A DNA stretch of 64,000 bases from Octopus vulgaris. Its lineage: Eukaryota. This document shows positions 44,072-44,932 of this stretch, piece by piece; positions within the stretch are counted from its first letter, which is position 1, and the number at the start of each line of letters is the position of its first letter. Under the pieces are notes generated by a model, which was not told the origin of the DNA, made no database searches, and worked only from the letters and a program-made list of their open reading frames with translations. The stretch is from assembly GCA_951406725.2 (NCBI GenBank), contig OX597826.1, forward strand, positions 8,246,001 through 8,310,000, given 5' to 3'. A program made the position numbers and the translations under genes.

Positions 44072-44363
44072 TATATATATATATATATATATATATATAT
44101 ATATATATATATATATATATATATATATATATATATATATATATATGATAATAAATATTAAGGAATAAATCCAAACTTACAGGGAAAAATGAGATTTAGG
44201 ATTGAATCCAATTTTATAGTCAAATATTATATTATATTAAATTAGAGACAAAACCACTATTAGGCAAATCATACAATGAAAAACTTAAGCCAATACATAA
44301 GATTATTTAATTTATATTATTTAAATATATAACAAAATTATTAAAAAAATATAATTAATATAT

Positions 44364-44427
44364 CACTACGATCGTTTCATGGCTGTTAATTTCTTTAAAT
44401 TTTCGAGTTACAGTCATTCATCAGGTG
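44364..44427 (-). ncRNA. Type I hammerhead ribozyme motif (left arm)
   Basis: Reverse complement of 44465-44528. Confidence 0.75.
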
Positions 44428-44464
44428 GTTTAAATATTTATCTCGCCAAGATAAATATTTAAGC

Positions 44465-44528
44465 CACCTGATGAATGACTGTAACTCGAAAATTTAAAGA
44501 AATTAACAGCCATGAAACGATCGTAGTG
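44465..44528 (+). ncRNA. Type I hammerhead ribozyme motif (right arm)
   Basis: cac-CTGATGA-atgactgt..acagccat-GAAAC-gatc-GTA-gtg has the canonical CUGAUGA/GAAA/UH core. Predicted cleavage after 44525. Confidence 0.78.
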
Positions 44529-44932
44529 ATATATTAATTATATTTTTTTAATAATTTTGTTATATATTTAAATAATATAAATTAAATAATCTTATGTATT
44601 GGCTTAAGTTTTTCATTGTATGATTTGCCTAATAGTGGTTTTGTCTCTAATTTAATATAATATATAATATATATATATATATATATATATATATATATAT
44701 ATATATATATATATATATATATATATATATATATATATATATATATATATATATATATGTATGTATGTATATGTATATATCGAAATAAGTAACAAGTATA
44801 TCCAGAGGTAATGCAGTACGATCGTCGCTAAGCAATGTTTGGAAATCTCTGCATTATAGAATAATTTACAAGTATCACATTGTTGCTTTGTAACAATAGA
44901 TTCTAATAAATTGCTCGACGTGGTATACATTC

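Follow-up and report, generated by a model that had tools for sequence, protein, structure and literature searches.

Hammerhead-bearing palindromes in Octopus vulgaris as probable copies of the spliced leader of a Penelope-like element

Head-to-head inversions in L1 elements arise by twin priming, with two primers extended on one RNA, and intron loss and an extra 5' G are marks of processed pseudogenes and L1 copies. In Penelope-like elements (PLEs), inversions, tails, 5'-UTR introns and hammerheads are already known, and retrozymes have been tied to PLE pseudo-LTRs.

According to the consulted sections of PMC11167929, the PLE protein of an anole cuts and extends both target strands, its reverse transcriptase (RT) starts at two internal positions, one at each boundary of the tail, and the inversions are left unexplained. 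Antisense self-priming was put forward for both inversions and intron retention in the part of PMC3846280 consulted. The available excerpt of PMC4209133 describes pairs of minimal Schistosoma hammerheads on opposite strands, 100-700 bp apart, and reports no monomer activity and low multimer activity for such minimal motifs. In the excerpts of PMC8557442, PMC3846280, PMC4209133 and PMC11167929, the origin of PLE inverted repeats and tails, intron retention and the action of the hammerhead in vivo are treated as open. In the open literature, outside which the older Penelope papers of 2003, 2006 and 2008 fall, we found no report of spliced-leader retrocopies or of twin priming for PLEs.

Here we describe palindromes, each with hammerhead motifs in its arms, from a 64,000-nucleotide stretch of the Octopus vulgaris genome (contig OX597826.1, positions 8,246,001 to 8,310,000; hereafter the window, numbered from its first letter). 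The palindrome is likely a by-product that records PLE insertion, rather than an element of its own.

Palindromes in the window and their hammerheads

A sequence-only reading of the window had described a near-perfect 216/216-bp palindrome with a one-sided extension, embedded in (TA)n at 44154-44664. This was confirmed: the inverted arms occupy 44228-44443 and 44449-44664, with a single mismatch (44429/44463) and five unpaired central bases, and the left arm continues for about 74 nt past the palindrome to about 44154. (TA)n, the target, lies on both sides (44073-44146 and 44665-44758). As also stated in that reading, the palindrome has no ORF.

The long arm (44154-44443, minus strand) and the short arm (44442-44664, plus strand) both correspond to a spliced PLE leader, and end at the long (tailed) and the short end, respectively. 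The tail that separates these ends (44154-44227, minus strand; about 74 nt) would be bounded by two RT start sites. An exon 1 remnant is found at 44442-44454 (plus strand), with the splice junction at 44454|44455 and its minus-strand mirror at 44438|44437, where the parent element holds an 851-nt GT..AG intron. The arms are joined head to head at 44442-44448 with a 2-nt microhomology, and this joint is the apparent 5-nt loop of the sequence-only reading. Since the centre differs between copies, it is the junction of two differently truncated arms and not a conserved loop.

The second copy (32656-33180) lies in the opposite orientation, as had been noted, and is 91% identical to the first when inverted. 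It is an independent insertion of another subfamily with a different centre; both of its arms read CUGAAGA, and variants common to the two arms are absent from the first copy. In addition, a small diverged insertion in (TA)n (58275-58405) consists of outer ends only, an inverted short end and a long end. Separately, a common interspersed repeat forms an inverted pair with internal duplications of about 150 nt at 44950-45330 and 45715-46066 of the window, and recurs at 2875-3119 and 13884-14233.

When the window was screened on both strands for the hammerhead pattern, there were four matches (+44468, -44424, +32906 and -32852), all within the two palindrome copies. In the first copy the plus-strand motif spans 44465-44528, with a predicted cut after 44525, and the mirror motif spans 44364-44427 on the minus strand, with a predicted cut after 44367. 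The plus-strand motif comprises a 3-bp helix I, the core (44468-44474), helix II (44475-44513), GAAA (44514-44517) and a palindromic helix III, in agreement with the earlier assignment to the minimal type I. The claim of a hammerhead in each arm holds in that both motifs are real, but a given strand contains a single hammerhead in sense orientation rather than two. With Rfam, the window element gave no match at the gathering score, only low-complexity miRNA look-alikes, and the hammerhead models gave none on 44446-44600 at E<=10.

In 105 arms of this family (H1) the core is near-invariant, and the only frequent variant affects the N position (83 T, 22 A). The young age of H1 makes this a weak test of conservation; a sister family, described below, is a better one, and there the core is kept as well. 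The predicted energies are about -0.1 kcal/mol for the hammerhead monomer, -12.0 for the helix III dimer and -318.5 for the whole hairpin. On this folding model the ribozyme would be hidden within the hairpin, which makes self-cleavage by the palindrome unlikely. The two pseudo-LTR copies in a parent RNA could instead pair via the palindromic helix III.

The parent element and its spliced leader

A search of the 2.8-Gb genome with the element returned 1480 candidates, the 40 that were scored being near-full palindromes, and an exact 29-mer from the arm occurs 1423 times, versus 0 for a reversed control. The first 100 listed 29-mer places, which cover nearly all of contig C1, provided a sample of 75 insertions not selected by shape. 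It consists of 41 directly joined inverted pairs, 10 intron-bearing copies and 24 insertions treated as single arms, four of which do have a partner, either tiny or set apart by a later insert. Arm positions are given below as U1-312, after a natural single-arm copy (L035).

The 10 intron-bearing C1 insertions run upstream of U20 into different sequence that starts with GTATGT and ends with TTTTAG. In a genome search, the sequence further upstream of such arms led to an ORF with RT and GIY-YIG domains; a GIY-YIG/RT-encoding element ending in the arm sequence, as the earlier reading had predicted, is thus present in this genome, and the proposed link to PLEs stands. In copy L238 the order is partial intron, leader (hammerhead and tail), ATG about 60 nt past the tail, ORF, 3' UTR, exon 1, intron and leader. 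The hammerhead accordingly lies within the pseudo-LTR of the parent, and (TA)n is the insertion target. Copy L231 has the textbook PLE form, with an inverted short arm, a truncated ORF, a pseudo-LTR and a tail. The ORF of the anole element begins in helix II; here a corresponding ATG, at the beginning of that helix, was rejected as the start codon, since its frame closes after 20 codons.

The single ORF encodes an RT with a C-terminal GIY-YIG domain and includes YRDD, MGAPDS and a YIGST region. DKT replaces DKG at residue 64, and the CxCx5C linker (CTCRDKTKC) is found at 597, CxxC (CYLC) at 703 and CxH (CRH) at 732, while CX2-5CxxC is absent. The N-terminus has RIKWKA where printed Hydra proteins, compared by eye, read RMRWKA. 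By these motifs the parent is a putative Hydra-clade PLE; Pfam and PDB searches with the protein gave no match, and the motifs therefore carry the assignment, the reference Hydra proteins having been compared by eye. For the exact H1 subfamily an intact ORF was not found, L236 being 5'-truncated and L238 containing breaks, and its leader may have been copied either in cis or, by the protein of the sister family, in trans. In L236, residues of about 420-510, between RT thumb and endonuclease, are asparagine-rich, like the N-rich inserts of rotifer Penelope.

Neptune-type PLEs, retrieved by a Pfam GIY-YIG search, were rejected as the parent; they have no pseudo-LTR in common with H1 and little protein likeness. 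A young family of this type in (TA)n (L094:47-5260; C6:133343200-133349900) has many intact copies, with a 781-aa RT/GIY-YIG frame and an overlapping upstream frame of 479 aa, and a pattern scan found no canonical hammerhead in it. A second Neptune-type family (L107:1821-4983) has inverted arms of 766 bp that are 100% identical, just one of which has a tail; its hammerhead-like core reads CCGAAGA. Further hammerhead motifs with a palindromic helix III (L069:90-574, L099, L092:5332-5754, L068, L082, L064 and L304), some of them fold-back pairs in (TA)n, are probably leaders of other PLE families. The genome also contains more distant Hydra-like families (53-58% identity) with open frames of 863-1090 codons.

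In the arms from the window, exon 1 is fused to exon 2 at the point where the parent has its 851-nt GT..AG intron. Their identity to the closest intron-bearing copies is 97.9% and 98.3%, the former value being the match of the arm opposite 44154-44443 to L238, L218 and L209. Genome-wide we counted 455 exact spliced arms and 170 exact intron-bearing (acceptor) arms, and identical exon-2 variants were seen in both kinds among the matches listed (100 each). A tree was built from 89 arms, comprising 60 of 70 spliced and 29 of 29 intron-bearing ones; on it the splice state changes 13 times, with at least 8 changes forced by well-supported branches, and none of 200 bootstrap trees has a single origin of spliced arms. 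Shuffled labels change 24.8 times on average, so some clustering of spliced arms is present. Spliced copies arise repeatedly across parent lineages, and the arms almost certainly originate from the spliced PLE leader.

The sister family repeats the spliced-leader pattern with a different intron. It has intact ORFs of 816-851 aa at 10 of 13 loci fetched, and shares U151-312 with H1 at about 87% identity. Its hammerhead has the same core and helix I, a palindromic or near-palindromic helix III and an unrelated helix II; its intron, with the acceptor at the same place, is 1853 nt long and different from that of H1. Leader copies with a non-G base before exon 2 number 538 arms. In 11 of 24 inspected, at least 10 nt agree perfectly with exon 1 up to the GT that lies 1853 nt upstream of the acceptor; a donor shifted 4 nt onward is used in two, and most of the others carry this exon end or a variant of it, one being unrelated.

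At the 5' side, 52 of 60 spliced arms that reach exon 1 stop at U1 or at most 6 nt upstream. Relative to the A of a TTAGTT motif, nine arms end exactly there, two at 1-2 bases beyond and six at 14-23 beyond. A G precedes six of the nine; two of these are explained by the partner arm and four are unexplained. A capped, initiator-like start at this A is likely, albeit weakly supported, on such end positions. An upstream 3' splice site as the cause of the edge was rejected, as the 60 arms have no common upstream exon. The 851-nt GT..AG joint is also present in contigs of one presumably matching RNA run, but since the spliced form exists as DNA too, this is not evidence of expression. One copy with ORF and 3' UTR (L249; C3:182058900-182068800) has a spliced 3' pseudo-LTR, which means that read-through RNA can lose the intron too. 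The palindromes lack both ORF and intron and are probably dead-end products.

Outer ends, centres and proposed mechanism

Arms end on the outer side at about U234-238 (short) or U309-312 (long). A short and a long end are combined in 95 of 96 distinct inverted pairs, a partly palindrome-selected set from 180 loci, the exception (L195) being short+short; in the C1 sample this combination holds for all 41 directly joined pairs, the long end being slightly clipped in three. (TA)3 or longer flanks both sides in 86 of the 96 pairs and at least one side in all of them. The centres are nearly all different (90 distinct among 96), and the palindrome therefore appears to be made anew at each insertion. 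In 45 pairs it is the short arm that extends further 5', in 40 the long arm, and in 11 the two are equal. In 6 of the 41 C1 pairs the long arm is tail-only, starts at U267-296 and has no overlap with its partner. Long-arm starts also appear to bunch near the short site (six at U201-234). At the centres of L038, L047, L055 and L130, small pieces are duplicated or inverted again, which points to repeated template switching ahead of the joining step. A MITE or fold-back DNA transposon was rejected as an identity for the element, with ends that differ by a fixed tail, variable centres and a lost intron.

Arm divergence averages 1.6% within an insertion, compared with 3.7% between different insertions. 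Of 101 private variants, 86 are confined to one arm, so the arms were alike at birth and drifted later, and ongoing conversion is not the cause of their likeness. In a nearest-neighbour test of 82 arms, a weak test in so young a family, the own partner was strictly nearest in 8 cases and tied in 15. Fold-back artefacts occur in long reads, and AT-rich sequence lies near both intron boundaries; the palindromes might be assembly fold-backs or DNA-level rearrangements, and the intron a recurrent internal deletion. We consider this extremely improbable. A deletion is at odds with GT..AG ends in the unrelated introns of two families (851 and 1853 nt), with the alternative donor and with precise intron loss in many lineages, and the assembly artefact, which the earlier reading had named as a way to be wrong, is contradicted by the fixed one-sided tail and by the mean arm divergence.

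That reading took the hairpin to be the unit of a retrozyme-like, non-autonomous family. On such a view, either the whole palindrome or a spliced arm would itself be transcribed and copied anew. The excess of spliced over intron-bearing arms and their partial clustering on the tree would fit such self-propagation, as would the short+short pair L195 and four to five centre classes that recur, each common to 2-4 loci. Against it, most centres are distinct and the commonest occurs in both polarities; single and non-overlapping arms are common; the spliced arms are polyphyletic, scattered through intron-bearing parent lineages; no tandem monomers besides parent-type partial tandems were met in the 75 C1 insertions; and re-copying should often give short+short pairs, of which one in 96 was seen. 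As the main route it is largely refuted and in our estimate very improbable, whereas occasional re-copying of a palindrome may occur, given L195 and the shared centre classes.

A head-to-head layout with microhomology at the centre also fits inversion by self-priming on an antisense template or by snap-back of a single cDNA, the model for rotifer PLEs. On an antisense template the sense-strand intron would stay, yet most junction-reaching arms are spliced, and snap-back cannot produce pairs such as L032, L041, L166 and L186, in which the short arm is complete at its 5' side and the long arm consists of the tail only. With spliced and non-overlapping arms, antisense self-priming is contradicted for these copies and could survive only for intron-bearing ones; overall we regard this explanation as more improbable still than re-copying of the hairpin. 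Two primers very probably make the inversion.

It is likely, though with less assurance, that both arms are copied from one RNA molecule. They are of the same subfamily in 75 of 77 pairs scored at two sites, against about 60% expected from a type frequency of 27%, and the two exceptions differ at one site only. Among neighbouring junctions at most 12 kb apart on C1-C4 (100 spliced and 53 intron-bearing junction matches), six were spliced-spliced, seven loci intron-intron and none mixed. Two RNAs transcribed from a single active locus could likewise yield arms of one subfamily, as could completion of one arm on the cDNA of the other; overlapping arms would need the RNA to be copied twice, by strand displacement. 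In one case (L084:525-2603; C11:50846155-50849418) a Neptune arm with the short end appears to be joined head to head to an arm of the Hydra-type sister family with the long end, which would mean two RNAs; the joint has no TA run, while that of the similar L068 is TA-rich.

We hold with considerable confidence that each arm is a spliced leader of the Hydra-clade PLE and that the palindrome forms when both (TA)n ends prime on one mRNA. The parent would be transcribed from a start just upstream of the 27-33-nt exon 1 and spliced. Its RT/GIY-YIG protein would bind the leader, which would carry the same initiation signal as the 3' pseudo-LTR, and the endonuclease would cut both strands of (TA)n. 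One target 3' end would start cDNA at the short site and the other at the long site, about 74 nt apart; both cDNAs would extend toward the 5' end of the RNA as far as the cap, the hammerhead cut or some earlier point, and microhomology would then join them head to head. With only one primer, a single arm would result. Because initiation would be internal, at the first signal on the spliced mRNA, such an mRNA would yield only leader copies.

The 5'-most starts of the C1 insertions lie at U1-24 in 25 of 65, and the 40 starting at U25 or later include 18 at U91-106, 3 at U75-90 and 7 at U107-122, positions being uncertain by several bases in AT-rich parts. No best window in 20000 permutations matched the pile-up at U91-106, which contains the predicted cut (U94/95). 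In a genome-wide hand count of 88 arms differing at U88, 17 start at U95, 5 at U94 and 19 at U93, where the target also supplies a TA; 14 start at U90-92, and 33 are point variants. Both arms lie on the same side of the predicted cut in 20 of 27 pairs (p=0.018). From this pile-up just 3' of the predicted site we lean toward cleavage by the PLE hammerhead in vivo; stalling of the RT at a dimeric helix III predicts a pile-up at the same site and is an alternative. That all three components hold together, namely two-site twin priming on one sense RNA, full elements from read-through RNA and genomic evidence of in vivo cleavage, is in our view about an even chance.

Comparison with known systems

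If true, two-site twin priming explains both the inverted pseudo-LTRs and the one-sided tail of PLEs, and the origin of full elements from read-through RNA would explain their intron retention. Three built-in markers (splice state, two start sites and the ribozyme cut) are available in more than 1000 arms of one genome. Two families replicate each other; the copies yield specific predictions for the existing in vitro PLE assay, and intact sister-family ORFs are at hand. More generally, a palindrome with hammerheads but no ORF in an animal genome is not necessarily an independent element.

From the excerpt of PMC8557442, the parent resembles Hydra-clade PLEs in its ORF (RT with C-terminal GIY-YIG, DKT, CxCx5C, CxxC and CxH). 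It also has in common with them a hammerhead in the pseudo-LTR, insertion into (TA)n, a truncated arm in inverted orientation and a tail on one side. The Hydra-clade elements described there have units of less than 3 kb, tails of 30-40 nt and RWK, whereas here the unit is about 5 kb, the tail about 74 nt and the motif KWK; a further difference from that description is that most junction-reaching copies are here ORF-less spliced leaders. Judged by eye against the printed Hydra-1_Obim, the family is a different one.

With Poseidon of Anolis (PAc), as presented in the consulted sections of PMC11167929, the element shares an AT-rich target and a hammerhead upstream of the start sites, and would also share the two internal RT start sites on either side of a tail and the cutting and extension of both strands. 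The ORF of PAc starts in helix II, while the ATG here follows the tail, and those sections report that no reads were found to end at the hammerhead cut, where 5' ends pile up here. In Drosophila virilis Penelope and Chlamys-3, the 5'-UTR intron ends just before the pseudo-LTR hammerhead, as here (PMC4209133, excerpt). The same excerpt describes PLEs as intron-retaining; in the octopus, spliced copies are the majority and the hammerhead pairs are traced to a parent.

Non-LTR retrozymes (bioRxiv 10.64898/2026.07.22.740005, portion consulted) are likewise ORF-less, derived from PLE pseudo-LTRs, about 300 nt long and equipped with a type I hammerhead. They form head-to-tail tandems and presumably circular RNA, whereas the copies here are single or head-to-head and are bounded by a transcription start and by RT start sites. 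This identity was rejected, as head-to-tail monomers were not met and the 75 C1 insertions are single, head-to-head or of the parent type. A mechanistic parallel is L1 twin priming, from which the proposed PLE form differs in that priming occurs at two fixed internal sites, no poly(A) is involved and the arms often overlap.
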